Translations under genes and position numbers: made by a program | The notes under the pieces: model-generated | The model's input: the letters and a program-made list of their open reading frames with translations, nothing else | Database searches by the model: none | Told to the model about the DNA's origin: nothing | In this document: positions 12,155 through 41,527 of the stretch, one piece after another | Position numbering within the stretch: the stretch's first letter is position 1 | How the letters are laid out: the number at the start of each line of letters is the position of its first letter | IMG/VR virus record: IMGVR_UViG_2871003000_000003 | Span: 101,773-165,772 of that record | DNA length: 64,000 bases | Source of the DNA: a virus | Lineage: Duplodnaviria; Caudoviricetes | Reading direction: 5' to 3' (one strand)

Positions 12155-12170
12155 CAGAAAGGAGGAGGAC

Positions 12171-13784: not shown

Positions 13785-13818
13785 TTAAAAGGAAAATTAG
13801 TTTTATAGAGATATGTCG

Positions 13819-13852: not shown

Positions 13853-13945
13853 GTTAAAGATGAAAAATTAAATAAATTGTTAAACGAGTGGTCTGCTAAT
13901 AAGTAGATCACTTTTATTTTATGTAAACAAAGGAGGATAAATCTT

Positions 13946-15172: not shown

Positions 15173-15188
15173 GAGGAGGACGAATTAG

Positions 15189-15608: not shown

Positions 15609-15626
15609 TTGAAGGAGGGTATATAA

Positions 15627-16727
15627 ATGAGTTATACATTTGAGTTAAATAACGAACGTAGAGATGCTTCTTTTGTAAGTGGAAAAATTAATGCCAATTC
15701 TCCAGTTGTAGAAGTATTCTCTGCTATGACAGATGGTAAAGAATTAGCAAAGTTTGGTAAAAAGGGAGATGCTGCAGCTAAATATATTAAAGAATTGAAC
15801 AGCAGAGCTGCGACAAATGATCAAGTAGCAATTTCTGAAATCAATGAACTGAGACGTTTCAAAATGCAGCCAGTACTTATGCAGGAAATCAAACTGCTTG
15901 GAATTTATGGAAATTACAAACCAATCGGATACAATGAATCTTGTGAAGTAGAAATCACAGAGTATGTAAATACTGGTGCTGAAATTCAGGCTGCTGGTCA
16001 GGATGTAAAATTCCCAGCAATCAGAAAAAGACGTGTACCGATTGCAACAACTACTATTTCTGGTGGTTATGCAGTTGACTACAGAAAAGCAGCACTTGGA
16101 GATATGAGTGATGAGAATGAACTTCAGGAACAGGTTCGTGTAGACATCCGAAATAAAGCTGCTAAATATGTAATCGACACTACATATAAAGCAATTAAAG
16201 ATGCAAAAGGTGTGAAATATTTCTTTGAAGGAGCAGGACTTACAAAGACAGGTGTCGATGGAGTTATTGCAAATGTAAGACGTTTTGGTAAACCAACAAT
16301 CTCTGGTGACTATGCTATGATTGCACAGTTTAATGGATTCGCTGGATATGAGGGAACAACACCGACTGTAAACGGAATCTCTCGTACAATCATGGATGAG
16401 ATTCATAATACAGGACTGATGGGCGTATACAATGGAGCCACTCTTGCAGAGATTCCAAATCCGTATGATCTGACAACTCTGAATAAAGATGGTACAAACT
16501 TTGAGACAATGTTACCGGCTGGACTTGCATTTGTAATTCCGCAGGGTGGACAGTCTCCAATTCATACTGTAACAAGAGGTGGACTAACATCATTCTCTGG
16601 AAACGATGTTACAACAGGAATGCAATTATCCAGATTTGACATGGAGTTTGGTTGTCTTGTAGTACCTGGAAGAGAATATGAAGTGGGTATGCTTCATGAT
16701 CAGAACCTTGATTCTCTTGGAAAATAA
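15627..16727 (+). CDS. Major capsid protein
   Basis: 366 aa, strong SD, position in the head module, followed by a terminator. Confidence 0.85.
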   Translation: MSYTFELNNERRDASFVSGKINANSPVVEVFSAMTDGKELAKFGKKGDAAAKYIKELNSRAATNDQVAISEINELRRFKMQPVLMQEIKLLGIYGNYKPIGYNESCEVEITEYVNTGAEIQAAGQDVKFPAIRKRRVPIATTTISGGYAVDYRKAALGDMSDENELQEQVRVDIRNKAAKYVIDTTYKAIKDAKGVKYFFEGAGLTKTGVDGVIANVRRFGKPTISGDYAMIAQFNGFAGYEGTTPTVNGISRTIMDEIHNTGLMGVYNGATLAEIPNPYDLTTLNKDGTNFETMLPAGLAFVIPQGGQSPIHTVTRGGLTSFSGNDVTTGMQLSRFDMEFGCLVVPGREYEVGMLHDQNLDSLGK

Positions 16728-16740
16728 TTTCAAGTAAATC

Positions 16741-16786
16741 TAAGATAGTTTTCGCATTATTTTAAATGTGGAAACTATCTTATTTT
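16741..16786 (+). terminator. Intrinsic terminator after the capsid gene
   Basis: TAAGATAGTTT...AAACTATCTTA followed by a T-tract. Confidence 0.7.
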
Positions 16787-16811
16787 AGTTTAAAGGAGAA
16801 AACAATTAAAT

Positions 16812-16991
16812 ATGAATGAATATTTCTATTGTTATTCAAAAAAATTATCATACTTTATTATGGCATATGATATTCCATATGTTTCAAAATCTGTAAACAA
16901 GAAAAATGGTATGCCATATCATACATTCAAGAAGTCAGAACGACTGGATAAAGTAATTGCATTATATAAAGAAATTATACATACTGTTTAA
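16812..16991 (+). CDS. Small DUF5659-like protein (59 aa)
   Basis: SD AAGGAG; MNEYFYCYSKKLSYFIMAYDIPY...FKKSERLDKVIALY. Not in the ORF track. Confidence 0.65.
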   Translation: MNEYFYCYSKKLSYFIMAYDIPYVSKSVNKKNGMPYHTFKKSERLDKVIALYKEIIHTV

Positions 16992-17040
16992 AAATAATTA
17001 GTTGATAAAATTACATTAATTGCTATGGAGGAAACAGAAA

Positions 17041-17526
17041 ATGATTGAAGACAAAAACACAGTACAGGAATTAAATCTTGAGCAGAAAGTAACTATTAAA
17101 AGTATCGCAAATTGGACAACAGGTTTCAAGAGAATTGAAACAAATGGCGATGTAACAATTCCTGCAAATGGGACAGTTCGCTTACAAAGAAGTGAAATTA
17201 TTACACAGATTCAGAACGGTAATAGATTATTGACAGGAATAGACGACAGAGGTTCTCATGCAACACTTTATGTTGATGATAAGCCAACAAGAATTGAAGT
17301 TGATTTTGAGAGTGAAGATGGAAAACAGGTGCAAAATATTCTTACAGTAGATGCTGTCAAGAAATTGTTTGAATACAAAACCTTAAAGACATTCGAAGAG
17401 AAACTGAAGGATCTTGTCGTTACACGCGCCGAAAAATTTGCAATTTTAGAAATTATTAAAAGAGAAAAACTTAACGATTTTGAAAAAATTAGAATCGTAG
17501 AAAATTACGTAGAACATAAGATTTAG
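17041..17526 (+). CDS. Virion-associated protein (YonA-like)
   Basis: SD GGAGG with ATG 17041; post-capsid position. Confidence 0.6.
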   Translation: MIEDKNTVQELNLEQKVTIKSIANWTTGFKRIETNGDVTIPANGTVRLQRSEIITQIQNGNRLLTGIDDRGSHATLYVDDKPTRIEVDFESEDGKQVQNILTVDAVKKLFEYKTLKTFEEKLKDLVVTRAEKFAILEIIKREKLNDFEKIRIVENYVEHKI

Positions 17527-17537
17527 GAGTGATTTGA

Positions 17538-17930
17538 ATGGGTAATACAACAGCTAACGAAGTGATACAATCATTTGAGTCTTCTTTTGCAGATAAAACA
17601 GTATTGCCTTTATCACTAGAAATGGAATGGTTTAAGAAGGCAATTGGAAGGTATTCTGCAGAATTAAGTGATTTACATTTTGACGTGGAATTAAATCAAT
17701 TTGATTCTGAATTGGATAGATATGTTATTGATACTTTGGCAGAATTTATGAAACAATCATATCAAGAACGTCAGTATTCTAAAGTCAATAAACGAATCAG
17801 CATAACCGGAAAAGATATTGGAATTGATGGGTCTAACGGATCTAAAACTGCAACAAAAGCGGAACTTGATTACGTCGCAGAAAAGGCAAATACGATGGTT
17901 GGAAACCAGAAAGTAACTGCTTTTATTTAG
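17538..17930 (+). CDS. Head-tail adaptor
   Basis: 130-aa helical ORF in the neck position. Confidence 0.55.
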   Translation: MGNTTANEVIQSFESSFADKTVLPLSLEMEWFKKAIGRYSAELSDLHFDVELNQFDSELDRYVIDTLAEFMKQSYQERQYSKVNKRISITGKDIGIDGSNGSKTATKAELDYVAEKANTMVGNQKVTAFI

Positions 17931-17941
17931 GAGGACGCGAT

Positions 17942-18970
17942 ATGCAAGAATGGTATTTATTAAGTCAGAACACTCGTCCAAATGTAACCGGTGGATTTGA
18001 GAATGACATGTTTGTAGAAAACAAGGATGATGCTTTTGCGGAATCGTTAGAAACTGATATTGCGGTTTCTGTTATTCTTTATAATAGCGATTTGAGCAAA
18101 GGTAAAAACATTCGTTGCATCGTACAAGGAAATACAGCAGATACACAATTGAAGTCACTGGAAAGAACAGTACTTTTTTCTATAGGAACTGTAAAAGCTG
18201 GAATGTATGTATTTTTTGAAAATAGGTATTGGCTGATAAATGGCTATCCGGGAAATAACGGAATATACGAAAAAGCTACAATGGTATTGTGTCAATATTT
18301 ACTGCGATGGCAAAATTCTGAAGGAAAGATTATTGAGCGTTGGTGCAACGCTGTTTCAGCCAGTAAATATGATGTAGGTGAAAATGGGAATTATACGATT
18401 ACGCTTTCATCTAATACATATACGATTCTCACACCGGGAGATTCTGAATGTCTAAACTTGGATAGAAAAAGAGTATTTATTGACAAAAGAAAAATAAATC
18501 CGGAAAAAGTGTTTAAAATGACGAGAACAGACGATATCTTATATGATTATGGAGATGAATATCATGGGAGTGTTTTAAGTTTTATTGCAGATAAGACAGA
18601 ATTAAATCTTAAAACAGACAGTCAGGAACTTGGCATTTGTGACTATATAGATATTGATCATTCAGAACATGACAATGATAAAGGAACTGTTTTTGCTAAA
18701 ATTATCGGAAGTGATTCTATAAAGATTAATAGAAAAAGAACATATTATGTTAAATTTTACAGCGACGAGAGTTGTACTGAAGAAATTGAATGTACTAATT
18801 ATACTTGGCATGTATCTGATGATATCCAGGTAAAAAAAACAATCTACGAAAATTCAATTGAAATACTAATATCTGATGAACAGTATATCGGAAAAATTTT
18901 ATCTCTGAAAATCATTTCTAACTCACATCCAATTTCTGAAAAGAAAATCGAAATTAGTAATTTATTTTAA
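17942..18970 (+). CDS. Head closure/neck protein with an Ig-like C-terminus
   Basis: Synteny; VKAGMYVFFENRYWLI...CQYLLRWQ motif typical of SPbeta-like neck proteins. Confidence 0.55.
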   Translation: MQEWYLLSQNTRPNVTGGFENDMFVENKDDAFAESLETDIAVSVILYNSDLSKGKNIRCIVQGNTADTQLKSLERTVLFSIGTVKAGMYVFFENRYWLINGYPGNNGIYEKATMVLCQYLLRWQNSEGKIIERWCNAVSASKYDVGENGNYTITLSSNTYTILTPGDSECLNLDRKRVFIDKRKINPEKVFKMTRTDDILYDYGDEYHGSVLSFIADKTELNLKTDSQELGICDYIDIDHSEHDNDKGTVFAKIIGSDSIKINRKRTYYVKFYSDESCTEEIECTNYTWHVSDDIQVKKTIYENSIEILISDEQYIGKILSLKIISNSHPISEKKIEISNLF

Positions 18971-18980
18971 GGAAGACATT

Positions 18981-19460
18981 ATGAATAAAACAGTATTAAA
19001 AGATATTGGAATTTTTAAATCAAAGCTTCTTTTATCATTTTTAGATTCGTCTGATATTTGTGAATTACTATTAGGTGATAATTATATGCCAGATGATGTT
19101 GACGATCTGGTGTATTCTCAAATCTTTCCTTATTTATATATAGAAGATACTCAAACAGAGGTTAAACCATATCTTTGTTTTGAAGTAAATTTCAAACAAC
19201 AGACAAGGACTATGAAAACTCTTCAGATTATTGTCTATGCGTACTGTCATAAGGATTGCATGAAATATCACAAAGACGGATATTCTGGAACAAGAGCTGA
19301 CATTTTAGCTGATATGGTTGAGCGTCAATTACATGAAACAAATAAATATGGTATAGGAGAATTGAATTTGGAATCTGTAAATTACTACTTTCCAAATAGT
19401 AAATATTACGGAAGACAATTGGTTTTTACAACATCAGATTTTAAATTCAAAAATATTTAG
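18981..19460 (+). CDS. Tail terminator/completion-like protein
   Basis: Synteny; IFPYLYI..Q and RADILADMV motifs. Confidence 0.5.
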   Translation: MNKTVLKDIGIFKSKLLLSFLDSSDICELLLGDNYMPDDVDDLVYSQIFPYLYIEDTQTEVKPYLCFEVNFKQQTRTMKTLQIIVYAYCHKDCMKYHKDGYSGTRADILADMVERQLHETNKYGIGELNLESVNYYFPNSKYYGRQLVFTTSDFKFKNI

Positions 19461-19466
19461 CGAATT

Positions 19467-20246
19467 ATGAAATTAGATTATTTTGATCTAATCTCCCCTC
19501 TCCCACTTGATCTTGTTGGAATTGGAAGAATTAAATCTCCAAAGCTCATTGAGATTGCTGACATATCTTATTACGTCTATGCACAATATGTGTCGTGTCT
19601 AAGAATGACTCCAAGTGATTATATTGAAGATTTTAAAATAGAAGATCCAGATATTAATTTGTATACAAAATTTGACCTTATTTTGTATGATTCAAATTTT
19701 AGAAATATGATTAAAAATGCTCTCAATTTTTTCTTTGTAGAGGATTTCGAATGGTTTGATGAATATAAATCATTTCTATACACAGAGGAAATTGTTAGAG
19801 AAAATGGCGATACTGAACTTCTAGCAAAAGGAATTATAAATTCTAAAAATTATTATGATGTGTTGGATATAATTCTTCAACGAGTGCATATTACACCGGA
19901 CAATACAGAAGTGACTGATATTACAAAGATCAAAAATAAACGTGGATTAAAAATATACAAGAGGTTGCAAAAGGTAAAACGTGAATTCAAAAAAAGTTCT
20001 GGCGGAAATCCAGATTTGTCTTTACCTAACATCATATCGTCCGTTGCTGTAAGAAGCCTGTCATTAAACTGGATAAATATATGGGATATTACAATTTATC
20101 AATTATTCAATGAATTTGAAAGGCTTCAGATAATTGATCAATATGACATTGCTTCTACACAGGTGTCTGTATGGGGAGATAAAGAAAAGAAATTCAAGTT
20201 TGGTGCTTGGAGTTCAAATATATATAACAAAAATGACGCTGAGTAA
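19467..20246 (+). CDS. Tail assembly protein (YomV-like)
   Basis: Synteny; IWDITIYQLFNEFERL motif. Confidence 0.5.
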   Translation: MKLDYFDLISPLPLDLVGIGRIKSPKLIEIADISYYVYAQYVSCLRMTPSDYIEDFKIEDPDINLYTKFDLILYDSNFRNMIKNALNFFFVEDFEWFDEYKSFLYTEEIVRENGDTELLAKGIINSKNYYDVLDIILQRVHITPDNTEVTDITKIKNKRGLKIYKRLQKVKREFKKSSGGNPDLSLPNIISSVAVRSLSLNWINIWDITIYQLFNEFERLQIIDQYDIASTQVSVWGDKEKKFKFGAWSSNIYNKNDAE

Positions 20247-25946: not shown

Positions 25947-26267
25947 TTTTCACTCCTTTCTGTACTTTGATATACAGAACAGGGAGTGTTTGCGGAAGAA
26001 AACCGCAGAGATATGATGTAAAGAAATGATACATATAATAACTAATCACCTTTCTGATATATGTACTGTTTTCATTTCGTATACAAAATGTACACTTCCA
26101 CAGACGCTTCTGCCGGACATATACCCGTGACACCGGATTGGTTGTGGTAGATCCAATCGATATACATCCAATTTCATTATAACAGAATTTCACTGGAATT
26201 AAATATAGATTTTCTCCGTTTCGTATAGTATGATAATAACAAACTATTATGAAACGGAGAAATTATT

Positions 26268-26408
26268 ATGTGTGAAAATTCAAGAAACCGTGAACCTATT
26301 AGATGGGAAATATCAAGTAAGAATCCGTCGAGAGGTGATGCTCCATCTCCTATCGATATTTTCAATCAAGATATTTCTATGAATCAGGAAGGGGAAAACG
26401 AAGATTAA
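26268..26408 (+). CDS. 46-aa peptide coupled to the DUF6338-like gene (cassette 1)
   Basis: SD GGAG; MCENSRNREPIRWEISSKNP...GENED*; the stop overlaps the ATT start of the next gene. Confidence 0.6.
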   Translation: MCENSRNREPIRWEISSKNPSRGDAPSPIDIFNQDISMNQEGENED

Positions 26409-26988
26409 TATAAATATCAATGAGTTATTATACCAAATGCCGCTCCTACTGGAATTCTTAGTTCCTGGTTTTATATTTATGACAATGTTTAATTATTTCA
26501 CATCGTCAAAAATAGAACATTCAATTCTATGGAGCGTTGCAATAAGCTACATATTAAAAGCATTATGTAGTTTTTTACACGAGTTCATTTTTAAAGATGT
26601 TATTTTCAAATGGAATGAACGTGTTATAATTCTTGTTTTAATATCAATTATTTTAACAATAATTCTAATTCGATTTTACGAGTCAGAATGGTTGCATAAA
26701 ATATTCAAATTTATCAATTTCAAAACCCAACATGATTGTATTTGGAATGATGTAATTGATATGAAAAGAGGAACAACATTAAAAGTTATTTGTAATGACA
26801 CAACTTATATAGGAATATTGTATATGTTTGAAGAACATGGAAAAGATTCTTGGTTTGTGTTATCAGATTATATTATAGAAGAAAATGGGAAAGCTTATGA
26901 TTCAAGTAAATCAAATTTTCCATGCAAAATTGCAATTAATTTGAATGATGCAAAAAGAATAGAATTATATTATGGAAACACAGAGTAG
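26404..26988 (+). CDS. DUF6338-like membrane protein (cassette 1)
   Basis: LVPGFIF, three TM segments, IWNDV, and a beta-rich C domain. Paralogue of 43173-43760. Confidence 0.7.
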   Translation: MNININELLYQMPLLLEFLVPGFIFMTMFNYFTSSKIEHSILWSVAISYILKALCSFLHEFIFKDVIFKWNERVIILVLISIILTIILIRFYESEWLHKIFKFINFKTQHDCIWNDVIDMKRGTTLKVICNDTTYIGILYMFEEHGKDSWFVLSDYIIEENGKAYDSSKSNFPCKIAINLNDAKRIELYYGNTE

Positions 26989-27081
26989 ATTTATTTCTCT
27001 CTGTGTTTATTTATTTACTACTGCTCTCCTTTCGTGAGGGCTTTTTTGATGTCCGAAATTGAAAGGAGTTGATTACTAAAA

Positions 27082-28263
27082 ATGAGTACATATGAAGTCA
27101 AGGTCAGCACGAATGTAGACACAAGTGAACTCGATGCTGCACAGAAAAAATTAGATAGTTTAGTTAAAAATGGAAAACATATTAAAGTTGATTTTGATAT
27201 TCAGGGAATGAAGAACCTGAATAAGATCAATGGTGTCTTAAAAGGAATCGAAAAAAATAATAAGATCAGTGTAAAAGCTGATATGGATACATCCGGAATT
27301 AAAAAAGGATTATCTGATATTGAAAAAGCGAAACGAAGTGTGTCTACTTTGAAGATTGATGCAGATGTGTCAAAGGCGAATGCAGATTTTAAAAAGTTTG
27401 AATCTCTTACGACAAAATCCGCGGAAAAGGCTCGAAAGTTATTATCTGACATCAATAAGGATATTAATAACGTGAAATTGGCTCCAAATGATTCCATTAT
27501 GGAGATTAATTTTAAAAAACTTACTAGTGATTTAGAAAAATACAGGAATCAGATTAAGGTTGTACAAAATGAGCAAAAAGCTCTTGGTAATTCTATTACA
27601 TCTGTATCAAAATCATTTAGTAAAATTGATGCAGTAACTGCCTCTAACAAGACCTTAACGTGGTTAAAAAACAATAGTCGCGCTGCAAAAGTATATGGCG
27701 ATCAACTAAAAGAAATTGCAGAATCTCAGAGAAAAGCAACATCAGATTCAGAGCTAACTTCACTAAATAAAGATTTCAACAAAACTGTATCTGAGGCAAA
27801 ATTACTTGGACTTACTGGTAAAAGTTTTACAGCGGAATTTAAACGTGCATTTTCTCAAATTGCACAGTTTACGCAAATTTATGGTGGAATTGAAAATGTA
27901 ATTCAGACTATTCAAAACTCTGTTATTGAATTAAAAAATGTTGATTCTATTTTAACAGAAATTTCTAAAACATCTGATATGACAACAGATCAACTTACAA
28001 AACTTGGAGAAACATCTTTTGATTCCGCAAGCAAGTGGGGAAAGAAAGCAAGTGATTACCTACTTGGTATCCAAGAAATGAGTAGATCTGGCTATTATGG
28101 CAAACAGGCTGAACAAATGGCTGAAACAAGTATTCTTGCTCAGGCAGCCGGTGATTTAAATTCAGATGTTGCAAATAGTTATCTTTTGGCATCGAATGCC
28201 GCATATCAATATTCTGGAAATGTTCAAAAACTTAATGCATTGCTTGATGGACAAAATATGATT
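27082..28263 (+). CDS. Tape measure protein, exon 1
   Basis: TP901-type TMP core begins (LKNVDSILTEISKT...LDGQNMI). Confidence 0.88.
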
Positions 28264-29480
28264 AATATAGTGGTCATGCTATATAGAAATATATAGCTTC
28301 ATAGTTGGCTTTTATCCCGGAAACTCCAGAGATGGACAATCGGGAGGATAAGTTAAATAAAATACGGTAGAAAGAGGATATTATAGAAATAAAATTAAAA
28401 TCATGGCAAACTCTCGCAAACTGTAAATTTTGTAATAAAGAGTTTGTAACTACTAAATATAAGGTTAATAATAATAAAAATGGTGTTTTTTGTAGTAGAA
28501 GTTGTTATGCTGACTACAAAAAAGAAACGATGACAGGTTCACAAAATATAAATTATAAAGAAAAGGTAAAGGTTCATTGCGATAATTGTGGTAAGGAAAT
28601 TGAAAAAATACCATCTTTAACACATAATATAAACAAACAAGGAGAAAACCATAACTTCTGTTCTTATGAATGTTATTGGGAATTTCGTAAAAAATATTAT
28701 GTCGGGGATAAATTATATAATACTGGAAAAAAGATGGACGAAATTTTTTGCAATAAGGTAAGAGAAGCAACATTAAAACAATATCAAGATGGTATACTTG
28801 ATAGACAAACAATACCACAAAAGATAGTTAATAGTATATTAGAAAAAAATAATATTAATTATATCAATGAAAAAACTTTTAAATATTATTCTGTCGATAA
28901 TTATTTAATAGAACATAATTTAATTATTGAAGTTATGGGTGATTATTTTCATGTGAACCCTTTAATTTATACAGATTCAAATGAGATAAATAATATGCAG
29001 AAAAAGGATATTGATAGAGACAAAAGTAAACATACATATATAAAAAAATATCAGGATGTTGAAATTTTATACCTATGGGAATCCGATATAAAAAATAATC
29101 CTTTATTATGTGAAGAATTAATAAAAAAATATATAGAATCAAATGGCAAGTTGGAAGAATATAATTCTTTTAACTTTTCTTTTTGTGATAACAATTTAAA
29201 ATTAAATAACAATATTATTAAACCGTATTTTATTTAACCCCCTAACGACTAAGTTGTAATATGGTAACATATTGCACACGCCGACTTCGATAGATATAGT
29301 CTATCCGTTACCTATAAGTCCGTAGGAACGCCTAACGTAAAACGAGGGAAAAGATATAGTCTAGTCTCACGCTATAATCTAAAAATGAAACGTGAGAGGT
29401 AGGATTAACGTCCTATCCGCTTTATTGTTATTTAACAATAAAGTCCAATGCTTTGTCCTGGAAGCATAGTAATAGAACAA
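28264..29480 (+). mobile_element. Group I intron 1 in the TMP gene (homing-endonuclease bearing; terminal nucleotide A)
   Basis: P1 ATGATT/GGTCAT with U-G; P10 TAGT/ACTA; P3 GTTGGC(28304)/GCCGAC(29280); P7 GACTA(29247)/TAGTC(29357) within S element AAGATATAGTCT. Splicing gives LDGQNMI|TNRNSVSM. Confidence 0.88.
28383..29237 (+). CDS. Intron-encoded homing endonuclease: Zn-finger repeats plus Vsr/DUF559-like (EDxHD) nuclease
   Basis: CKFC..FCSRSC and CDNC..FCSYEC repeats; VDNY..IIEVMGDYFH..RDKSK..LYLWESDI. ATA start after GAAAGAGG. Confidence 0.8.
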   Translation: MEIKLKSWQTLANCKFCNKEFVTTKYKVNNNKNGVFCSRSCYADYKKETMTGSQNINYKEKVKVHCDNCGKEIEKIPSLTHNINKQGENHNFCSYECYWEFRKKYYVGDKLYNTGKKMDEIFCNKVREATLKQYQDGILDRQTIPQKIVNSILEKNNINYINEKTFKYYSVDNYLIEHNLIIEVMGDYFHVNPLIYTDSNEINNMQKKDIDRDKSKHTYIKKYQDVEILYLWESDIKNNPLLCEELIKKYIESNGKLEEYNSFNFSFCDNNLKLNNNIIKPYFI

Positions 29481-30173
29481 ACTAACAGGAACAGTGTATC
29501 CATGCAGGATATGGCAGAAGCCACAACTCAAGCAGCTTCAATGGCATCAGAATTGGGGGTTCAAGAAAATCAACTTTCTGCGATGATTGGAACAATTGAG
29601 TCCAGAACAAAAGCAGGTGGCAATGAGGTTGGTAATGCGATCAAATCATTGTTGATAAACGTTCAGAATGTAAATAACTCAAAAATTGCAGAAACGTTTA
29701 AAAAAGCTGGCGTTGCTCAGACAGAGTTTGTAAACGGTGTAGAAAAAATGCGTAATCCAATTGAAGTATTGGAGGATCTTGCGAAAGTATTTAATCAATT
29801 AGAAGAGTCAGATCCACTGCGTACAGAAATTCTTACAAATATTGGACAGAAATACCAAGCGAACAAACTAAGTGCTTTATTATCTGGATGGTCTGACTAT
29901 GAAAAAATGCTTGTAGATTATTCTGAGGGTACAGGAAGTGCTGCAAAAGAAGCAGAAAAATCTGCAAATAACTGGGAAGGATCTCTAAATAAATTATCAA
30001 ATACTTGGACTGGATTTATTCAGAATTTTGCTAATTCCAACATGATTACTTCTGGATTACAAGGACTTACTGGAATAATTAAAATAATCGACACAGTTGT
30101 TTCAAAAGCAGGAACACTCGAAACTGTTATGGGAGTTTTAGGTGGAGGATTAGCGAGTAAAACAGGATGGGGT
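29481..30173 (+). CDS. Tape measure protein, exon 2
   Basis: GNEVGNAIKS, GSAAKEAEK..NWEGSLNKL TMP motifs; ends ...KTGWG. Confidence 0.88.
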
Positions 30174-30739
30174 AAAACTATCGTAGTTTATAATGCCCCT
30201 TTCTATAAGGTTGCATAATAATGCCATGCAATTAACGTAGAGAGTGTTTATATTATATATCGTAATGTAATATGACCATCCTTGAAAACATAGATTTTCT
30301 AAATTGTCGAATATCGGGGGAAGCCGTAAGCCTATTTATATAGGTACTGGATCGATGCAATAAAAGCGTATTATTATATAGAAGAAATACGTTCGTGAAG
30401 GAATAAGCATTTAATGCGAAAATGGTAGTCCCGACGCACTATAACTAAAACATGGAAGTGTAGTTCCATATATAGGGCGCGAGAGACTGACAAGACATGA
30501 CGTGATACAGGCGTAATTGTATCATATGGTACACAACATACAGTCCGTACCTGGGGAAAGCCCAGGGTAGTCAATATGAGATACGGCAGTATACACTACT
30601 GCTCTATTGACACAAACTACACAACCTGTTGCTGACTTGCAAAAACAGGACAGGATATTCATAGTGGTATTCCACTCGGCGCATCTCTCGTCGTTTTCTA
30701 ATAGAGATAAAAAATAGACACAAATTGTTTACATTCTAC

Positions 30740-30840
30740 TTGACTTAATACAAAAAGAGTGTATAATAATACATGAGTTAAAAATAATATAGCTCGTAAC
30801 ACCACGATGTAAGGACAGGATATAATTCCCTGTCCTTTTG
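30740..30840 (+). ncRNA. Promoter-driven small RNA (about 70 nt) inside intron 2
   Basis: TTGACT-16 nt-TATAAT (30740-30767), no ORF, terminator AAGGACAGG..CCTGTCCTTTT. Confidence 0.5.
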
Positions 30841-31163
30841 TTATGTTGTGGAAACAAATAAATAGAATAATTTTTCTTTCCAAAAACACAAGAGATATTT
30901 TAAATATAGAGAAAACAACTATATATAGGAAAAATTTATATAATTAGTGTGTTTTTTATTTTTCTGCACTATATCTAGCGGTTGAACAAATTTAATAAAA
31001 AATGTATAATAAGATACACAAAAAATAGTCTAATTTATTTCTCACGTTATATTTCGACATTTTGTTTAAATTTTTTAATGTATAATTGCTTCAAATACTA
31101 AGGGGTGATTATATGAAGTTAGGTAAAAAAGGATCCATACACACAAAAGAGGAGGTAAGACAT

Positions 31164-31325
31164 ATGGCAGTCTCAATGGCAGTTGTACCGTTATTAAAAG
31201 GGGAAGCGGCTACTAAAATCGTAGATGATTTTAAAAGCAGCAAATTAAAACCATTTACAGACGATCAACGTAAGAAGACTAATGCTAAAGTAGCTGAGAT
31301 ACTCAAAGGTAAACGTAATGGATAA
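31164..31325 (+). CDS. Putative antitoxin of the GNAT toxin
   Basis: SD GAGGAGG; 53 aa; overlaps the GNAT start. Confidence 0.6.
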   Translation: MAVSMAVVPLLKGEAATKIVDDFKSSKLKPFTDDQRKKTNAKVAEILKGKRNG

Positions 31326-31875
31326 CACAGAAAACTTTCAATATAAAGAAGAGTTACTAAGCAAAGAGTCATTAAAACATTTTATGTTAGTAGGTGATTT
31401 TTGCTGTGGCGCAGACAATCCATTAAATACTTTCTTATCAGATGATGCATTTGATTATGCAGAAGAAAAGCAAGGACACACATACATTTTAATGGACAAC
31501 GAATACACTTGTATACTAGCATTTTACACAATTAAGGCTAATGCAATTCATACATTTAATACAGATACAAACGAATATATGGCGTTGCCTGTTGTGGAAA
31601 TAGCAAGAATTGCTGTAGATTTTGACTTCCAAGGGAATGGTTTAGGAAAAATATTATTTTATGATTATATAATACCTAAAATAAAAAAAGTAAGTAAGAT
31701 TATTGCAATATATGGTATCATTGTATTTGTAGAATCGGAAAATGGTCAAGGAATACAATTTTATAATTCACTAGGATTTAAAAGAGCCAATAATGAAATA
31801 CAAAAAGCAGTTGGTGATTCTTATAACGAAAAATGTGAATTGTATGTGCTGAAATTAGATGATATAAAAGAGTAG
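31318..31875 (+). CDS. GNAT acetyltransferase, AtaT/TacT-like toxin
   Basis: FCCG..LNTFL, LAFYTI, PVVEIARIAVD..FQGNGLG, FYNSLGF. Confidence 0.8.
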   Translation: MDNTENFQYKEELLSKESLKHFMLVGDFCCGADNPLNTFLSDDAFDYAEEKQGHTYILMDNEYTCILAFYTIKANAIHTFNTDTNEYMALPVVEIARIAVDFDFQGNGLGKILFYDYIIPKIKKVSKIIAIYGIIVFVESENGQGIQFYNSLGFKRANNEIQKAVGDSYNEKCELYVLKLDDIKE

Positions 31876-32000
31876 GGAGTAATCCTACTCTTTTATTATA
31901 TTGGCTGATGTTTTTATTTTATAGAAACATATGTTCAGACTACTCTTCTATTCATTATTGGTATATAATGGAAATACTAAAGATGAATAGGAGTAATATA

Positions 32001-32810
32001 ATGCCGAAATTTAAAGCCAGTTCTGTTATTTCGATGCTGAAACGGTTTACAGATGAAGAAAAAAATAAAAAAACTCAGTCTTGTCCGGAATTGAAGAATG
32101 AGATTAAAAATGTATTAGACGATACAAAGATCATTCTATATAAACAATCCAGAGAGGACGCGATTAAATATATTTTATGGCAAGGATTATTGAATAGATA
32201 TGGGATTTTTGGGAGCAACAGAAGACAACACCGCTTATTTGGTCAAGATAAAACAGATTATTATGCTCAAGAGTACCAACATGGAGATATTGTAAGTATA
32301 GACTTCGGAACATCGAATATTGGAAGCGAATTTTCGTTTACTCATACCGCACTTGTTTTGCATGAATTTACTGATTTTTTAATTGTTATACCTATTACTA
32401 CTGCTAAAGATGGTAGATTAGAGAATAAGCCATTGGATGAACAGGAATCAACATTTGTAATACATAAAAGTGATTTTTCGTTTATAGAAGCTGATTCATA
32501 TGTATTAATATACCAGATAAAATCTATTTCAAAAAATAGAATCACGAAAAGAATTGGGAATATAACAGGGTCAAAGTTTTTGTGTGACGTTGATAGCGAA
32601 GTGTTTAACATACTATTAGATCCGCTTTCAAAAAAAATATCAGAAGAAATAACAAACCTAAATATAAAGATATCAGATTATAAAAATATGATTGAAGAAA
32701 AAGATGAAAAAATAAGAGAATTAAATTGCTTGGTGGAAAATTTAAAACAAAATATTAAAAATAATGATAAAAATGTGTTGACAAATCTGGATTTCCATGA
32801 TACCATATAG
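32001..32810 (+). CDS. PemK/MazF-like endoribonuclease with a C-terminal coiled coil
   Basis: GDIVSIDFG..IGSEF...HTALVL, VIPITT, QIKSISKNRI. SD AGGAG before ATG 32001. Confidence 0.75.
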   Translation: MPKFKASSVISMLKRFTDEEKNKKTQSCPELKNEIKNVLDDTKIILYKQSREDAIKYILWQGLLNRYGIFGSNRRQHRLFGQDKTDYYAQEYQHGDIVSIDFGTSNIGSEFSFTHTALVLHEFTDFLIVIPITTAKDGRLENKPLDEQESTFVIHKSDFSFIEADSYVLIYQIKSISKNRITKRIGNITGSKFLCDVDSEVFNILLDPLSKKISEEITNLNIKISDYKNMIEEKDEKIRELNCLVENLKQNIKNNDKNVLTNLDFHDTI

Positions 32811-32895
32811 GCATAAAAGATAGATATTTTTAGCAATGGCTATTAAATATAACTACATGGAGAGGTCTTTACGAATAAACGTAAAGACCTTCTTA
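32778..32895 (+). ncRNA. Promoter plus small RNA downstream of the MazF-like gene
   Basis: TTGACA-17 nt-(TG)TACCAT at 32778-32806; hairpin GAGGTCTTTACG/CGTAAAGACCTT. Confidence 0.45.
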
Positions 32896-33041
32896 CTATT
32901 TAAAAATATATTTACGTTTTAATTAAAAAAGACTGGGTTATCATACCTAGTCTTTTCTCATGTATATTTTTAAATTCCAACTACTCTCCTCCCCACTAAA
33001 AATAGCTCTTACAGTTATTACGCTTCCACTGTTTACCGATA

Positions 33042-33479
33042 TTATTTTGGTATATTATTGATAATTGCACTAATGTATTCCGGATCATTTATTATTGCAT
33101 TAAAAATTGTACTGGCGAGTGACATAATTCCATGAATAGACGCAACCCCCATTTTCTTCGCAGATTTTTTCGTTGCATTCCATATTGTCTCTGGTCTAAC
33201 CGTATTTATAAAATTATGACCGCTCCATGAAATGTCATCAACATGACCTGATAATTTTCTGTCTTTCCCATTATAATTTTTATATCCAGTAATATAGCCA
33301 GCGCTCATTAATTGTGTCAGTGTATATGCAACATCTTCTTCGGAATATTTATTGTCTTGTGATAGTTCATTTATTATCGTTTTAAAAGAAATACCTTTTA
33401 TAGAAAAATATTCACACATCACAAGATTATCCTCTAAATATATTAATGTGTCTCTTACACATTCAGGATTTAGTTTCAT
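33042..33479 (-). CDS. DUF2513-family protein
   Basis: MKLNPECVRDTLIYLE...ISWSGHNFINTVR..IWNATK. Confidence 0.8.
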   Translation of the reverse strand: MKLNPECVRDTLIYLEDNLVMCEYFSIKGISFKTIINELSQDNKYSEEDVAYTLTQLMSAGYITGYKNYNGKDRKLSGHVDDISWSGHNFINTVRPETIWNATKKSAKKMGVASIHGIMSLASTIFNAIINDPEYISAIINNIPK

Positions 33480-33509
33480 AAGTTATACCTCCAAGAAAGG
33501 AATGATTAA

Positions 33510-33731
33510 ATGAAAGATATTACTATTCATTATAAAACAGATGATGAAATGACAAATAAAGATAATCCTCTTTATGATCTACGCAGCCGAATAGCGGTTC
33601 TAGTCGATGGAAAACCAATTGAAAGATTAAAAAGGTTCTCAATTGATTTTGATGTTAACGACATAGAACCAACTTATTGTGTGGAGCAATATATGGATTT
33701 TCCCAATAACGATCAAGACTATACGATATAA
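33510..33731 (+). CDS. Small hypothetical protein
   Basis: SD GAAAGGA, 73 aa. Confidence 0.6.
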   Translation: MKDITIHYKTDDEMTNKDNPLYDLRSRIAVLVDGKPIERLKRFSIDFDVNDIEPTYCVEQYMDFPNNDQDYTI

Positions 33732-33747
33732 GTCTATCACTCTCCTC

Positions 33748-34197
33748 TCACGGTTTCCATGTATGACCACAGTTAGAACATCTATTGACTGTTTTATTAC
33801 TTCCTAAGAATCCAGTCAGGATTGAGTAGCCTTTTTGCCCGGCGGTAATTGATGTCGATCCACATTTCGGACAACGTGGCTTGGATTCCTCTGCTTTCTT
33901 GCGCTCTGCTTCTGCTTCTTGAGCTTCTACTTGCGACCGGAATTGTGACATTTTTAATTCGTACTCTATGATATCGTCATCGTGTAATTTTATCATCGCA
34001 TCATAGAAATCTGTGGAATCTGAGATTTTTGACAGAATAATAAAATCATCATCCGGCATTGATGTCATGATTATTGGATGACCATATGGGCATTCTGTAG
34101 CAGTGTCTTCATAGAAATACACATAACCATTTCTATAAATTCCATCTTGTATTTTTTCTTTTTTGCATGTTGGACATATTTTTAAATGATTAACCAT
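33748..34197 (-). CDS. Zn-ribbon accessory protein
   Basis: CPTC..CPYGH and PRCPKCGS...CSNCGHTW. SD AGGGGG before ATG 34197. Confidence 0.75.
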   Translation of the reverse strand: MVNHLKICPTCKKEKIQDGIYRNGYVYFYEDTATECPYGHPIIMTSMPDDDFIILSKISDSTDFYDAMIKLHDDDIIEYELKMSQFRSQVEAQEAEAERKKAEESKPRCPKCGSTSITAGQKGYSILTGFLGSNKTVNRCSNCGHTWKP

Positions 34198-34261
34198 ATT
34201 TATCCCCCTATATATTTTTAATTGCAAGTTATTTATATATAGTTTATCAGAACAATAGACG

Positions 34262-37200
34262 ATTGTAAACTACGACTCTGATGCGGATAAATTCACATCT
34301 ATTTTTGACAATTTTAAAAAGAAAACAAAACCTAAATTTAATCAAGATACATTGGATTTTGCAAAAGAATTCAATAAGCTGGGTAAGAATTCAAATATTG
34401 ATAATATAGTTTCTCAATTTAAAGAGGTGGATTCTAGTGTTGTTGATATGGCAAAGTCTGTAAAAGATGGTTCTATGTCAATGGATGAGTTCATTGAAAA
34501 ATCTACAAAAGCTACAACTACCTCTTCTAAATTCAGTAGAATGGCAAAAACTGCTGGTACCGCACTGAAGTCAATTGGTGCTACTGCTCTGAATATGTTT
34601 GGTGGTTTTCTTATTGCTGAGGGGCTTAGTCTTGCAATAAAAGGAATTTATAATCTTATAAACGCAGACAAGATTGCAATTGAAAATGGGGAAAAGGCTC
34701 AACAGGAAATTAAGGAAGTATTTGATACTTACAACGGAAAAGTCGATACGATTAAAACGCTAGGAAAGAAATTTGCCCAAGATGCAGATTCAATCAAGAC
34801 CACAGGTGATGCCGTAGAATCACTAACTAAAAAATATGCAGAACTTAGAAAAGGTGTCAGTTCAGATAATACAAATCTTACTCTTTCTGAAAAGGAATAC
34901 CAGGACTATCTTGACATAAGCAATCAATTAGCTGAATCATTCCCATCACTTGTATCTGGTAGTGATGCAGCCGGAAATTCTATTTTAAATTTAGGTGACA
35001 ATGCGTCTGTTGCCGCTGACAAAATGGAAAAACTGCAAAAAACACAAATGACGTTGGCTCATAATGATATTGTTGATAAATCAAGAGATACATTTAGGGG
35101 TGCATTTGAAAAAGCAGACAATATTGAAGATGAGATAAAATCATTAAAAGGTCAAGAAAAACAATTAAAAGAATCTGCTTCTCAAATATCTTTAAGCCGA
35201 GATGAAATCAGAGAACAGCTTAAAAGTGGACATCTTATCTTCAAGGATATGTCTAAAACCGACGCAGACAAGATGGAAAAGGCACTTGGAGCATATGTCG
35301 GGAAAGAATTGGGTCGTGTCAGACGGTCTGACGTATCTTTGGATGGTCACACTATTGACAGAATCGAATTTACAATTGATCCTGTAGTAGATGAGAACAA
35401 ACTTAATGAAGCAACTGATATGATTGAGGCTAGAGTTTTAGCTGGAGAAGATGAGATTGCAGCTAAAAAAGGTGAAATACAATCCAATATTAAAGCACAA
35501 GAACAAAAGCAAAAAGAAGTCTGGAATAGTTTTGCTGAAAGCACAGTAAAACCTTATCTTGAAACATCTGCTGCTATTTCTGATATGCCTGTTGAATTAC
35601 TTAATGCAGTAGAAAGTAATTTACAGAATTTAGATTGGAAAAAACTTTATAAAGAATACGGCGGAGATGCCGATCAGATGCTTTTGGATGAATTAGTTTC
35701 GCCGCTAAACAGTCTAGAAAAACCGGCACAAGAAGCTTTGACAAAGGCTCTTAGTTTAGACCCATCAACAATGTCTATTGCTGAATATAATAAAGCTATT
35801 GACTCTGCTTTGAAGGAAGTTTCTGATAACAAAGCAACCAGAAAAGAATGGAAAAATAGATTCTTTAAATCTGCTATCGATTCTGCAACTGAAGATGCTA
35901 ATGCATTAAAAGAGCAGTTTAAGGATGTAGAAAAAGAAATTGATAATTTAAGTGGAGAAGACCGAGAATTAGCATACCAAATTGCTATTGAGGATGAGGA
36001 TTTCGACGGAACATGGCAAGATGTAATGGATAAGATCGAAGTCATGAAAGAAGAATCTGAGAATCCGATGACATTTAATCTTGGTACATTTACATCAGAA
36101 GTTGGAGATGCGATTGCTTTAATTGATACATTAAATGCTGCTCTTGCAAATAGTTATTCTGGAAAAGGATTAAGCGTATCTTATGAAGTAGACGAAGAAA
36201 CTGGTGTTGTACAATTAACTGGAGACATCGCAAATCTTCAAGCAGCTTATTCAGATTTAGAAGGATATGATCCATCTACTCTATTCGAAAGAACAGCAAA
36301 TGGTGTACATATTAACAGAGAAGCTCTTAGACAATTACAGGCTCAAGAAGAGGCTTTGAACAAGTCTAAATGGCTCGAAGACGAAAAGAATCTTACAGAT
36401 CAATTAGCAGTGGCTACCAACAAATTAGCAAATGCAAAGAATTCTGGAAGTGAATCTGAGGTTGCGTCCGCACAAGCAACCGTGGATTCATTACAACAAC
36501 AGTTGGAGCAAGTTCAATTGTTGTCAGCTGCATATGACGGAGCCACTTCTGCATATCAGCAATGGTTAAATGCTCAGTCTTCTGGAGAAGAAGGCGATAT
36601 GTTCCGAAATGTATCCGAGACAATGAAATCTCGTGGCGATCAACTATATAAGGAAGGTCGTTATAACACAGAAGAATTTCGTGCTATCGCTGATTACTTC
36701 TCAAACGAAGATTTGTCTACTGCCCCGATGGAAAAACTTGTGGCAGCATATGAAAATGCAGCTAATGCAAGAGAAAGATATTTTACCGGGAATAAACAGG
36801 GTATTGATAATTTCATGGCTGATATGCAAAATGATGCAGAATTAATGTCAAAAGGGATTGTCAAAACACTGGAAGATGGATCTCTTGAATTCCAAGCTGG
36901 ATCTGACAAAATTTTAGCAGAAAAATTCCATTTGAGTGAAGAAGCAATTCAATCTATTTTAAGAGCTGCTACAGAATATGATCAACATATTAAAATCGGT
37001 AAAATCGATGGTTCGGAAGATTTTAACGCTTCTATTGATGAAATGAAATCAAAAGCTGACGAAGCTAAAGGTAAACTTGAAGAATTAAAGAATGCTGGAA
37101 ATCAGAGTTTGGATTTGAATTTTAATTTTGACAGCACTGATTTGGCAGATTTAGATTCTCAGATTGAAAGAGCAAAAACAAATCTTGATCAGTTTAAAAA

Positions 37201-40065
37201 TGCAGATGGTCAGATTGATTTAAATGTCGAAGGCGCTCAAGAAGCTGTTACAATTTTACAAACCCTTATTCAGCAAAAGATTATGGTGAGCCAGCCTGCA
37301 ATTATGACAATTGACACGACTGGACTTGATGAAGCTACTGCTGATACGGTTTCTAAGTTGCAAGAATTCCAAGAACAATTAAACATCGTTAATTCATTAG
37401 AGATGCAACAAGATTTTGGAATTCAAGTAGATACTAACCAACTTGATGCTGCAAAGGCTAAGGCTCAAGAATTATTCTCAGAATTGCAAGGAAAATCAGA
37501 AGATGGTTCACTTGAAATTACACCAGATGTAAAAGTTGATACAGGATCAATGGAGTCATTGGAGCAAAGTTTGTCTTCTATGACGCCTGAAATAAAAGCA
37601 AAAATTGTTCCAGATGGAAATGTATCTGATACTCTGGTTACTGGTGATATTAAGGTTGAAGACCAGACTGCAAAGGTAGATTATGTAAGAGGAGACCAAG
37701 AAGCCCCTGCAGACAGAACTGCTTCTGTTGATTATATTAAAAAGGGTACAACACAAATTGAACCTGCAGACAAGAGTGCTGCTGTAACTTATAGTAAGAT
37801 TGGTGGAGAACAAGCACCTCCATCGGATAAAAACGCAAATGTTAATTATAAAAAAGGGGAACAAGAAGCACCGAGTAAGAAAAATGCAGTTGTCGATTAT
37901 AAACGTGGATCACAAGAATTGCCTGATTCACCTAAAAGTGCAACTGTTAATTATACTCTTGGAAATGTTGCTACTCCACCAGACGCTTATGTAAAAGTAC
38001 ACTATGATACATCCGGAAAACCAAAAGGTAGTAGTCCAGCCAATGGTACTGCTCATTCACAAGGAAGTGCCAACTCTGGTCATGCATTTTCTGGTGGATC
38101 GTGGGGATTAAAACAACCTGAAAAGGGCGCTCTGATAAATGAATTAGGTGCAGAAATTATTGTCAGAAATGGACAGTGGTTTGTAGAAAATAATGGATAT
38201 CCTACTATCACTAATCTCAAAAAGAATGATATCGTGTTCAATCATGAACAATCCAAAGCTTTGTTAGAACGAGGATATGTTACTGGATCTCATGCTAAAT
38301 TAGCATATGAAGGCAATTCTCATGCAAAAGGAACTGCATTTTCTGGGGGGTCTTGGACTTTTGGGAATACAGGTGGTGGAAACATTGGAGGCACCAACAC
38401 TACTTCCAACAATCTCAACTCCGCATCAAATAATCTTGCCAAAGCTGCTTCTGATACTTCCAAAGCAGCATCTGATACATCCGAAGCTGCCGAGAAATTA
38501 TCAGAGGCAGTATCCGGATACACGGACTGGGTTGAGGTGTTATTTAAACGCCTAGAATCACAGTATGATTTATTGATGAGTCAAATGGAGCGTATCGCAC
38601 ATCTCCCAGATAAGCAACAGAAACTGTACGAAGCAATGTCTAAGAACAGTGAACTACTGAATAGGACTCAGCAAGCAATTGGGACTTATCAAAGTCATTT
38701 TGATTCTATTGTACAACAGAGTGGAATAAACCCACTTATCGTCCATCAGATTCAGAACGGGTCTATGGATATTTCAAAATACGACCAGGATACTCAAAAA
38801 ATAATCAGCGAGTTGCAGTCTTATTATGATAAGCTCGTAGATTGTAATAAACAGTACGATGACCTCTTAAATAAACAGAGTGAACTGGCGCAGACAGCAT
38901 TGGATAATATTGAAGATTACATCGATATGATGACTGGAATTGAGTCCTCTGCTGTAGATTATCAGGAAGCATTACGTGAGTTAGCAGCTGCAAAAGGAGA
39001 ATCTGCATATTCCGACAATATGTATGGCTCTCTGCAAGAATCTATTAAAAATCAACAGGATGTTGCAGGTAAATTACAGTCACAGATTAAATCATATCAA
39101 GATGAAATCAATAAACTCATGGCAAATGGGTATATGGCTGAATACTCAACGGAATGGTTTGAAGCACAAGCTGCGTTAAATGGATTCAGACAAGAAGCTG
39201 CTGAAGCTGAGAAAACACTGATTGAATTACAAGATCAGTTAAGAGAACTTGATTTACTAAAACTGCAACAGGTTATTGATGAGTTAGACAGAACTGCAAA
39301 ACGACTGGAAAACAATTCTGACCTTACAGAATCAAAAGGTGAACAGGTATCTGAAAAAGATTTACAGGCACAGCTTGACAATGCAAATGCACAGATTCAG
39401 GCGAATTATAATAAGCGGAATGAACTGCTTAAAGAACAGGCGAAATATGATGTAGGTTCTGATAAATATAATGAAATTGCAAAAGAGATTGAGGGTCTTG
39501 ATGATGCTATCTTTGATGCAATGGAGAATATTGAAGACCTCAAAAATAAAATCTGGGAAGTAAGATGGCAACCGTTCTTTGATGGACAGGAAGCATTAGG
39601 TGATCTGATTGACCAGACAGATGATTTAAGAGGACTTTTAAATAGTGATGCTTTTCTTGATAAGAACGGCGGTTTAACTGTAGATGGTATTGCAAATTTG
39701 TCTTTGATTAGTCAGGGTATGAATGCTGCGAAACAGCAAATCAAGAATTATCAAGAGGCATTGAAGAAGCTTGATGAGGATTTAAAGAACGGGAATATCT
39801 CAACAAGTGAATATAAGGAGCAGCAAAAAGAATTTCTCAATCAGATTTCAAGCTCTGTTGGCGTTGTTGAAGACTACAAAGATTCTATTGTTGATCTCTA
39901 TACAAAGATGCTTGAGCAAGAGAATGAAGTTGCTCAAAAATCGATTGATAAGCAGAAGGAATTGTTGGATATCAAAAAGAAAAATGCTGATTACAATAAG
40001 ACTCTGCGTAAACAGGCTAGAGATGTGAATACATTGAAAGCTCAGATTTCAGCACTCGAAGGCGT
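34262..40065 (+). CDS. Tape measure protein, exon 3
   Basis: Long helical ORF, open from 34259; contains NELGAEII and HAKGT TMP motifs; ends AQISALEGV. Confidence 0.88.
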
Positions 40066-41527
40066 GAAGTTATTTGCGCGACTTCTATTTAATAGCGGGA
40101 AAGTCCCCACAACCCTATCTTGCTACAACGGAACTGGAAACGGTAAACGTGAATGCGGTACGAGTTTATAACTCAACAGTCTTCGGATAGAAACCATAAA
40201 AAACAGATAGGTCAGGGATAACCGGGTGTGCAAGTCACCCAGACGCAACGAACTTCCTAAGTCATATATGATTTATGATATGGAAGACGCTCAACGACTG
40301 GTAAGTCCTATATATTATATATGTAGGCATAGGGTTACAAGCGATTGGTAACTCGAAAAATATAGACTATTTGAATAAGGAATGAAATGAACAATTAAAT
40401 ATGATATATGTTATAATTAAGATACATCTATGATGCACTTATGAATACAAGAACGTATGTTTTGTATATATTTAACAATTGTAAACATATCACTTTGTTT
40501 GTATTTTGTGTAGAATTTTCTCCGTATATGGGATATAATAATAACAAGAAAACAGCAGTGTTTTCTTAAATATATCTGGTGTGATGCAGCGTAATATGAC
40601 TGCTATAAATAATCTTTGAAGTGTACGCCGGGTTAGGAACCGGTTTACATGGAGATTTACAAAGGTGCGAGGATTTACCATAGCCTAACTAGGAACTATG
40701 TTCTGAAAGAAAGTCCTTGAATGAATAGAAGGGTCATCACCAGTGACTCTTCTATTTTTATACCAAGGAGAAGTTATGGATAATATATCATTGGCACTAA
40801 ATAATTTCAAAGAATTGATGAATTGCAATTATGATTTTATAATAGTTTGTAATAAGCAAAAATCAGATATAAAACTTACATTTGAATCAAAAGATTTTTA
40901 TCATTTAGTAGGGTTTCAATACTTAAAAGATATAGACATCCCTAAAAATGAAAAACAGTTATTTAAAAAAATAGAATCTCTTAAGATTACTGATGAGTAT
41001 TTAGGCAAAAGTGTGTTTTATACAAAAGTGGATTACAGCTATGCAAATGTAAAAGAACGAATTTCCGGATTTAAAGATGTTGATAAATTTATAGAAAACA
41101 AAAATATTATATGTAGATATATAAAAACTAATAACCCTTCATCGGCTATAAAAGCGGATTATTTAATAAAAAGTACTTTATATAACAGAACGGCATATAT
41201 GTTTTTGAGAAAAGAAGCAAAGGAGATGAATATTGTATGTGTTCATTTTTTATGCAACCACAAAATGAATATATAGGTCAAAAAACATATTGGTTGTATA
41301 AAGCCAAAAAACGTATATCGGACAATTATGTTAAAATATTGTTAGATAGAATATCGGAATCCACAGAGCAGTAACAGGTAATACTACTGCTCTTTTATTA
41401 TGTCCAAAATCATTTCAAAAAAAATTCCAAATTATTCAAATAGAAGGTATAGTCTCAACTTCTGAGGATAACTCAGAGAAGTTCATAAGAGAACTGCATA
41501 GCGTAGCGAACTATGTGAAGATAATTG
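40066..41527 (+). mobile_element. Group I intron 3, with cargo in the P8 loop
   Basis: P1 GCGT/GCGC with U-G; P10 TTATTT/AAATAA; terminal G41527; P7 GACTG(40296)/TAGTC(41450); P8 CTATTTGAATAA(40367-40378)/TTATTCAAATAG(41432-41443). Splicing gives ALEGV|NNASAQAELKRL. Confidence 0.9.
40776..41374 (+). CDS. PBECR4-like (RelE/barnase-fold) nuclease, with an apparent 1-nt frameshift near 41210
   Basis: F..KDFYHLVGFQYLKDI, ERI, IKADYLI motifs. The shifted frame continues RSKGDEYCMCSFF..Q.TYWL.K to TAA 41374. Confidence 0.65.

Follow-up and report, generated by a model that had tools for sequence, protein, structure and literature searches.

Group I introns have been described in several forms that bear on the locus reported here. 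In organelles some are naturally trans-spliced, and in engineered bipartite td introns base-paired RNAs complete splicing; in both, the ribozyme itself is broken, its halves being encoded at separate places. IStrons with an insert of about 1.5 to 2 kb downstream of P9.2, the same place as in the present intron, are spliced in vivo (PMC4227781). Group I introns in prophage tape-measure genes are already known as well: the TMP-IVS introns, in the available sections of PMC2504315, either lack an open reading frame (ORF), carry an incomplete homing-endonuclease gene or, in two cases, carry a complete one. Finally, late transcription in SPbeta requires YonO, which has no detectable homology to the host polymerase beyond the catalytic double-psi barrels (PMC5467207). 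Our literature search found no paper describing cargo-carrying tape-measure introns. The subject of this analysis is a candidate of that kind, intron 2 (30174-34261, plus strand) in the tape-measure gene of an SPbeta-like prophage of Mediterraneibacter gnavus. The stretch analysed, called the window below, comprises 64,000 nucleotides (positions 101,773 to 165,772 of virus record IMGVR_UViG_2871003000_000003) and is the right-hand 64 kb of that 165.8-kb record; positions refer to the window unless stated otherwise.

Intron 2 appears to be a group I-type intron, predicted to be self-splicing, with the ribozyme in its first 500 nt or so, followed by a bay of accessory genes, the cargo. The best reading, which we hold to be reasonably probable, is that it is spliced in cis from a read-through late transcript, likely made by a YonO-like polymerase. 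In the lysogen, host RNA polymerase would transcribe the cargo bay convergently from two edge promoters; because central bidirectional terminators would halt it mid-bay, cargo transcription would stay inside the intron. During lytic growth the whole late region, intron included, would be copied as one long RNA, the likely enzyme being the phage's single-chain YonO-like RNA polymerase, which is expected to disregard host hairpin terminators. P1 would then fix the 5' splice site, and a 14-bp P10 would capture the distant 3' exon for splicing in cis.

Predicted splice sites, exons and ribozyme of intron 2

P1 can be read from the sequence as a helix between 30164-30173 and 30195-30204 (plus strand), which reaches 10 bp, including one U-U mismatch. 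Within it the end of exon 2, GGGGU (30169-30173), pairs with GCCCC (30195-30199), and the U30173.G30195 wobble closes P1 and marks the 5' splice site. The intron strand of P10 (30181-30194) sits directly 5' of G30195 and forms 14 contiguous pairs, one of them G.U, with 34262-34275 (plus strand), the 14 nt with which exon 3 opens behind G34261. No other 14/14 partner of 30181-30194 exists on the sense strand of the window, where shuffled sequence gave a mean of 0.35. A second complementary block, of 9 bp, links 30227-30235 with 34218-34226, and both blocks lie within a gapped 59-column match (E = 0.005). The preliminary description of this locus had counted about 35 bp of complementarity here and had given 34275 as its end coordinate; the former resolves into the 14-bp helix and the separate 9-bp block, and the latter is the end of the P10 helix. 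Judged by its sequence, the 14-bp helix is an ordinary but unusually long P10 in the canonical, textbook placement abutting P1. Because P10 abuts P1 with its U.G wobble and pairs right after G34261, the limits of the intron are placed at 30174 and 34261, which gives 4088 nt ending in G34261 and a splice site at 34261/34262. G34261 is conserved in the relatives and G34258 is not. The assignment to the group I type is based on P1, P10, the terminal G and the in-frame junction: the joined exons form a single ORF of 2594 amino acids (aa), which reads ...TGWG/IVNYDSD... across the junction (slash). A proximal look-alike of the 3' site, at 30594-30611, was at chance level (E = 0.24) and was rejected.

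Variation in P1, P10 and the ribozyme was compared among 13 distinct relatives. Five of these carry a second haplotype, in which each change in P1 or P10 preserves a pair. In P1, the 30173/30195 pair is U.G in the window and C.A in the second haplotype, while position 30167, which faces U30201, turns A-U into G.U. In P10, position 30191 (with G34265) passes from U.G to C-G, and position 30193 (with U34263) from A-U to G.U. Moreover, ACGATTGTAAACTACGACTCTGA is unchanged in relatives whose exon 3 is merely 84% identical.

The interrupted gene belongs to an SPbeta-like setting, the genes upstream carrying the SPbeta families YomU, YomV, YomW and YomX, and proteins identical to exons 1 and 2 are named tape-measure protein of M. 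gnavus, including strain ATCC 29149. Exon 1 (27082 to about 28262, plus strand) is separated by intron 1 (28263-29480) from exon 2 (about 29480 to 30173, plus strand), which has PhageMin_Tail and phrog_4211 matches and is 52% identical to the tape measure of a more distant relative (L006), where an uninterrupted gene encodes 2721 aa. Exon 3 occupies 34262-40171 (plus strand). Its first 41 codons, from 34262, differ from those of relative L013 at 9, 1 and 16 sites in the first, second and third codon positions, respectively. ATG, GTG and TTG are all absent between the stop at 34256 and position 34352, and gene callers pick differing starts for exon 3 across lineages. By these codon patterns, exon 3 is constrained for coding from its first codon despite having no start codon for 30 codons. 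It opens with I-V-N here and with I-T-N in a Lactonifactor prophage (L035), a G preceding in both.

Two side observations concern the same gene. Most relatives are without intron 1, so that the 639-aa protein of exons 1 and 2 is the common form; and in the close relative L004 (10500-12392) a further 1.9-kb insertion lies inside exon 2, at window position 29978, where the window itself is uninterrupted. Beyond the exon 3 stop at 40171, a drum RNA (RF02958, 66 bits) is found at 40611-40721.

The Lactonifactor prophage has an intron at the same codon, with P1 GGUGGU/GCCACC. In that lineage a P10 of only about 4 bp goes with a cargo of at least 5.4 kb, so large cargo does not always come with a long P10. 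A 12-nt match to exon 3 had been read as a compact, cargo-free intron in L003 and L008. This was rejected, the contig ending there; in the L003/L008 lineage a different contig holds exon 3, preceded by 5.4 kb or more of cargo. With that reading, a supposed association of long P10 helices with cargo was also dropped, the P10 of the lineage being about 4 bp.

A candidate catalytic core was recognized at 30479-30546 (plus strand): AGAGACUG as the 5' strand of P7, CAUGA as P3', P8, J8/7, and CAGUCC as the 3' strand of P7. AGAGACUG (30482-30489) is similar to the R element and AACAUACAGUCC (30535-30546) to the S element, and P7 (3' strand at 30541-30545) has a compensating change. Between these two sequences lie the P3' candidate and the P8 candidate, a 7-bp hairpin at 30503-30524. 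The 51 sites that vary among the 13 relatives all lie outside 30479-30546 (P = 2.7e-4). A P9 hairpin with a GAAAG loop follows at 30550-30566 (plus strand). Its stem occurs in several variants; the hairpin is the predicted minimum-energy fold in three of seven sequence types (the window, L013 and L036) and can be drawn by hand for the remaining ones. The candidate core would thus be complete ahead of the cargo and undivided in the 5' part of the intron. The Lactonifactor intron at this site matches Rfam Intron_gpI weakly (23 bits, E = 0.0016, for a gathering score of 50). Ribozymes of the four lineages at this site share no significant sequence homology (z from 0 to 4), and their alignment was therefore not used for covariation.

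At the boundary between ribozyme and cargo lies a 33-nt pseudoknot-like element (30677-30709, plus strand), with stems CGGCG/CGUCG and AUCUCU/AGAGAU; its first stem, with UUUUCU, was flagged as a weak terminator. The element follows three different ribozyme sequences and recurs at 11287-11319 in L005 and at about 13752-13784 in L023. Support for it is mixed: L005 differs at four positions, all compensatory (two compensatory changes), and L015 and L018 each have one disruptive, unpaired change. Outside this phage group, a degenerate search gave nothing but chance matches. Just upstream, a 16-nt deletion in L004 and L018 (window 30657-30672) takes out half of a GUGG-UAUU-CCAC hairpin, which therefore seems dispensable.

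The cargo bay and its variation

The cargo runs from about 30710 to the 3' site at 34261, that is, over about 3.5 kb. It opens with a strong sigma-70-type promoter on the plus strand (30740-30767; TTGACT-16-TATAAT, 11 of 12 matches), kept in relatives and, together with one minus-strand site at 28409-28380, the best in 26000-41000. Terminators were scored by folding, as a stem plus U-run, against shuffled sequence. The promoter is followed by intrinsic terminator 1 (30811-30839, plus strand; -18.7 kcal/mol, z = -4.8), with which it brackets an RNA of about 65 nt that is kept in all cargo variants; this small RNA (30775-30840) has no convincing complementary target in the genome.

Next come a 79-aa ORF and, overlapping it, a GNAT acetyltransferase gene (31086-31875 together, GNAT at 31318-31875, plus strand; Pfam Acetyltransf_7/1/10; phrog_1758 at 1.8e-26). 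Terminator 2 (31868-31895, plus strand; z = -3.9) separates them from a gene with a MazF/PemK-like toxin domain (31908-32810, plus strand; PF02452 at 8.1e-10), behind which stand a fourth hairpin (32862-32891, plus strand; z = -5.4) and terminator 3 (32925-32958, plus strand; z = -5.6). Terminators 2 and 3 look bidirectional, because an A-run precedes and a U-run follows the stem. The right-hand part contains a DUF2513 gene, antisense to the tape-measure gene (33042-33479, minus strand; PF10711 at 1.9e-19), a called ORF of 73 aa (33510-33731, plus strand) with no family match in the Pfam and PHROG searches, and a Zn-ribbon protein gene adjoining the 3' splice site (33748-34227, minus strand). 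The last shares its C-terminal ribbon (E = 2e-7) with the L005 gene in the corresponding position; it resembles hypothetical phage proteins only, and is not common to the Lactonifactor lineage. A minus-strand promoter (34269-34241; TTTACA-17-TAAACT with TG) carries the splice site 34261/34262 within its spacer, and the ten relatives that cover this stretch do not differ in it.

Among near-identical M. gnavus prophages, 94 to 99% identical over the aligned ribozyme stretch, the cargo spans about 4 to 7 kb. Its contents across relatives include GNAT, PemK-like toxin, DUF2513, a trypsin-like protein (PADLOC PDC-S45), DUF3800 and S24 peptidase, among others. The constant parts are the ribozyme, the promoter at 30740 with the terminator at 30811-30839, and the Zn-ribbon gene with the promoter at the 3' site; wherever the 3' end could be seen, which was in three lineages, a minus-strand gene and a promoter adjoin the 3' splice site. 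With constant elements facing inward at either edge, the bay thus appears to be read toward its middle from both ends, where bidirectional terminators close it.

Secondary insertions were also seen. An IS200/IS605 element (TnpA and a 486-aa TnpB) follows TTAC (30729-30732) in L015, L017, L036 and L038, between ribozyme and cargo promoter, which makes an IStron-like composite; the same 486-aa TnpB gene is also present elsewhere in L016. A 60-bp segment (33808-33867) aligns on either side of an extra insertion of about 1.2 kb in L012, L013, L016 and L021. The cargo of the Lactonifactor lineage (L035, 230-1790) holds a HipA-like kinase gene and then a DUF3037 gene.

Transcription across the intron and the mode of splicing

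Within positions 1-20000 of the window, 25 terminator-like sites were counted (6.4 expected), of which many are strong sense-strand sites, and another lies at 27023-27041, just ahead of the tape-measure start. Tail genes run on the same strand for about 20 kb downstream of the intron-bearing gene, with PHROG matches to at least 57369 and same-strand ORFs to 62688. Because of this terminator excess and of the same-strand tail genes downstream, read-through is needed across the whole late region.

At the head of this region lies the gene for a putative YonO-like two-barrel RNA polymerase of 923 aa (plus strand; record positions 99127-101898), of which the 3' end is in the window (1-126). The protein matches phrog_8308 (4e-88), and tblastn gave matches annotated 'RNA-dependent RNA polymerase' in phage genes. 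Its DFDSD motif, a candidate aspartate triad, aligns with the DFDYD of a 924-aa ORF of Spbetavirus BUCT082 (pairwise E = 4e-7), which is located two genes ahead of an HU-like gene. Directly downstream stands a ROOL RNA (375-972, plus strand; Rfam RF03087, 340.9 bits), at a position that matches that of an unannotated SPbeta non-coding RNA downstream of the YonO start site. The flap is the host polymerase domain used in hairpin-dependent pausing and termination (PMC5467207). A YonO-like enzyme would be expected to ignore the terminators of the cargo.

The preliminary description had pointed out the three sense-strand terminators, the antisense genes and the minus-strand promoter overlapping the 3' splice site, and had proposed that a continuous precursor would require antitermination unless the intron were trans-spliced. 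The features hold up, with the fourth hairpin to be added, and an unbroken precursor would indeed have to get past three or four terminators of host type as well as transcription units that run head-on. The need for read-through also stands, but it concerns the whole late region and not the intron alone, and a putative YonO-like polymerase is encoded. Trans-splicing gained no positive evidence. It would involve an RNA with exons 1-2 and the ribozyme, ending at a terminator at about 30700-30840, and a second RNA, bearing exon 3 and the 3' splice site, that starts in the right end of the cargo; docking of the second RNA on the first would fall to the 14-bp P10, possibly helped by the 9-bp block, and the exons would then be ligated. 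That helix is long enough for holding two RNAs together, the terminators are real, and a weak stem with UUUUCU stands immediately 3' of the ribozyme. A transcript begun between the 73-aa ORF and the splice site could enter exon 3, the scan showing no plus-strand terminator in that interval, and bipartite versions of the td intron of T4 are able to splice in vitro. However, the complementarity is a canonical P10, and the whole candidate core belongs to the 5' piece, which would leave nothing but the terminal G and P10 to be supplied by its 3' counterpart. The scan showed no plus-strand promoter above chance from which a 3' RNA could start (promoter-like sites numbered 76, with 72.5 expected), nor is the presumed late-promoter region repeated near exon 3. 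The downstream tail genes need through-transcription or a promoter of their own regardless, the Lactonifactor lineage combines its large cargo with a short P10, and the literature search gave no natural trans-spliced phage group I intron. Nothing calls for trans-splicing, since the candidate core precedes the cargo and about 20 kb of tail genes downstream depend on transcription that crosses the intron; we consider it very improbable. If it did occur, phages and bacteria would have their first example of a group I intron that is trans-spliced in nature, and tail assembly would be gated by two transcription events: a more striking reading, but an unlikely one.

Read-through of a cis-spliced precursor might instead be the work of host RNA polymerase with a phage antiterminator, protein or RNA. 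The read-through itself is called for by the terminators, and the large structured ROOL RNA sits at the start of the late region; the assignment of the 923-aa protein as a polymerase is weak. Yet no antiterminator turned up when the family libraries were searched with the genes of the cargo, the pair immediately upstream of the window and eight of the tail genes downstream (no genome-wide antiterminator scan was made), and the order polymerase, non-coding RNA, late genes matches SPbeta, where YonO is required. We regard this alternative as unlikely. A further alternative dispenses with RNA joining: exons 1-2 would yield one polypeptide of the tape measure and exon 3, translated from an internal start, the other, the structured RNA being left as a relic. 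This seems to us clearly improbable. Annotators do call proteins of 639 and about 1900 aa, and the window ribozyme is without an Rfam match; but coding constraint extends over the 30 codons ahead of the first possible start of exon 3, no start is conserved between lineages, the core is invariant, paired changes preserve P1 and P10, and exon 3 begins I-V-N or I-T-N right after a G in two lineages.

Several points nevertheless weigh against cis-splicing of a read-through transcript. Rfam gave no group I or group II match in 26000-36000 or 30150-30800, even at E up to 10, nor in L005, L004 and L023, and no convincing drawing of P4-P6 was obtained for the window ribozyme. When the 70-aa junction peptide was compared with 5.8 billion proteins, the best cover was 59%, with no spliced or intron-free form; the best 120 homologues of exon 3 all begin within exon 3, the best 120 of exon 2 all end at its end, and these protein searches gave no cargo-free or intron-free allele. 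The polymerase assignment relies on weak similarity (E = 4e-7), a motif and gene position, and the 923-aa protein has no Pfam, NCBIfam or PDB match. After 5' cleavage, the free 5' exon would have to remain docked while 3.5 kb more is transcribed, and head-on firing by host promoters could interfere. Read-through of intrinsic terminators by YonO was not directly tested in PMC5467207.

Comparison with known systems

If cis-splicing of a read-through transcript is correct, an essential late gene of a common human-gut prophage tolerates a freely exchangeable island of 4 to 7 kb with toxin-like and defence-like genes, and this tolerance would be made possible by housing in a self-splicing intron and by a phage polymerase that ignores host-type stop signals. 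This would amount to a simple rule for islands that are silent toward the tail genes in the lysogen and do no harm during lytic growth, and would connect YonO-type polymerases with cargo-carrying introns, both of them little studied so far.

The SPbeta late operon (PMC5467207) has the same order of polymerase, non-coding RNA and late structural genes, and there, as proposed here, a single long late transcript explains how internal signals are passed; the 923-aa protein, however, is only weakly similar to the Spbetavirus protein. The TMP-IVS1/2/3 introns of the Bacillus cereus group likewise interrupt a prophage tape-measure gene, at several sites per gene, and differing ribozymes can occupy one site, whereas the available sections of that report (PMC2504315) make no mention of multi-gene cargo, internal terminators or antisense genes. 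It is the multi-gene cargo that would set the present intron apart from these. Unlike in organellar trans-spliced and bipartite td introns, the parts here are collinear on one strand and the candidate core is undivided.

The IStrons CdISt1 and BcISt1 (PMC4227781) share with intron 2 a 5' group I ribozyme (a candidate one in intron 2), a large insert beyond the P9 region and a far 3' splice site, and their splicing restores the host gene, as is predicted here. They differ in what they carry and where they occur. The cargo of intron 2 is a 3.5-kb group of accessory genes that has promoters, terminators and antisense genes of its own and differs among near-identical phages; family searches found no IS200/IS605 or IS607 transposase in the window cargo, an IS200/IS605 element occurring only as a secondary insertion in some relatives. 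The intron leaves no room for P7.1/P7.2, and it is present as a single copy at a fixed gene site (one match for 30100-30700 in the 165.8-kb record). Intron 2 would thus have an IStron-like layout, but with non-transposon cargo, in single copy and at a fixed site.

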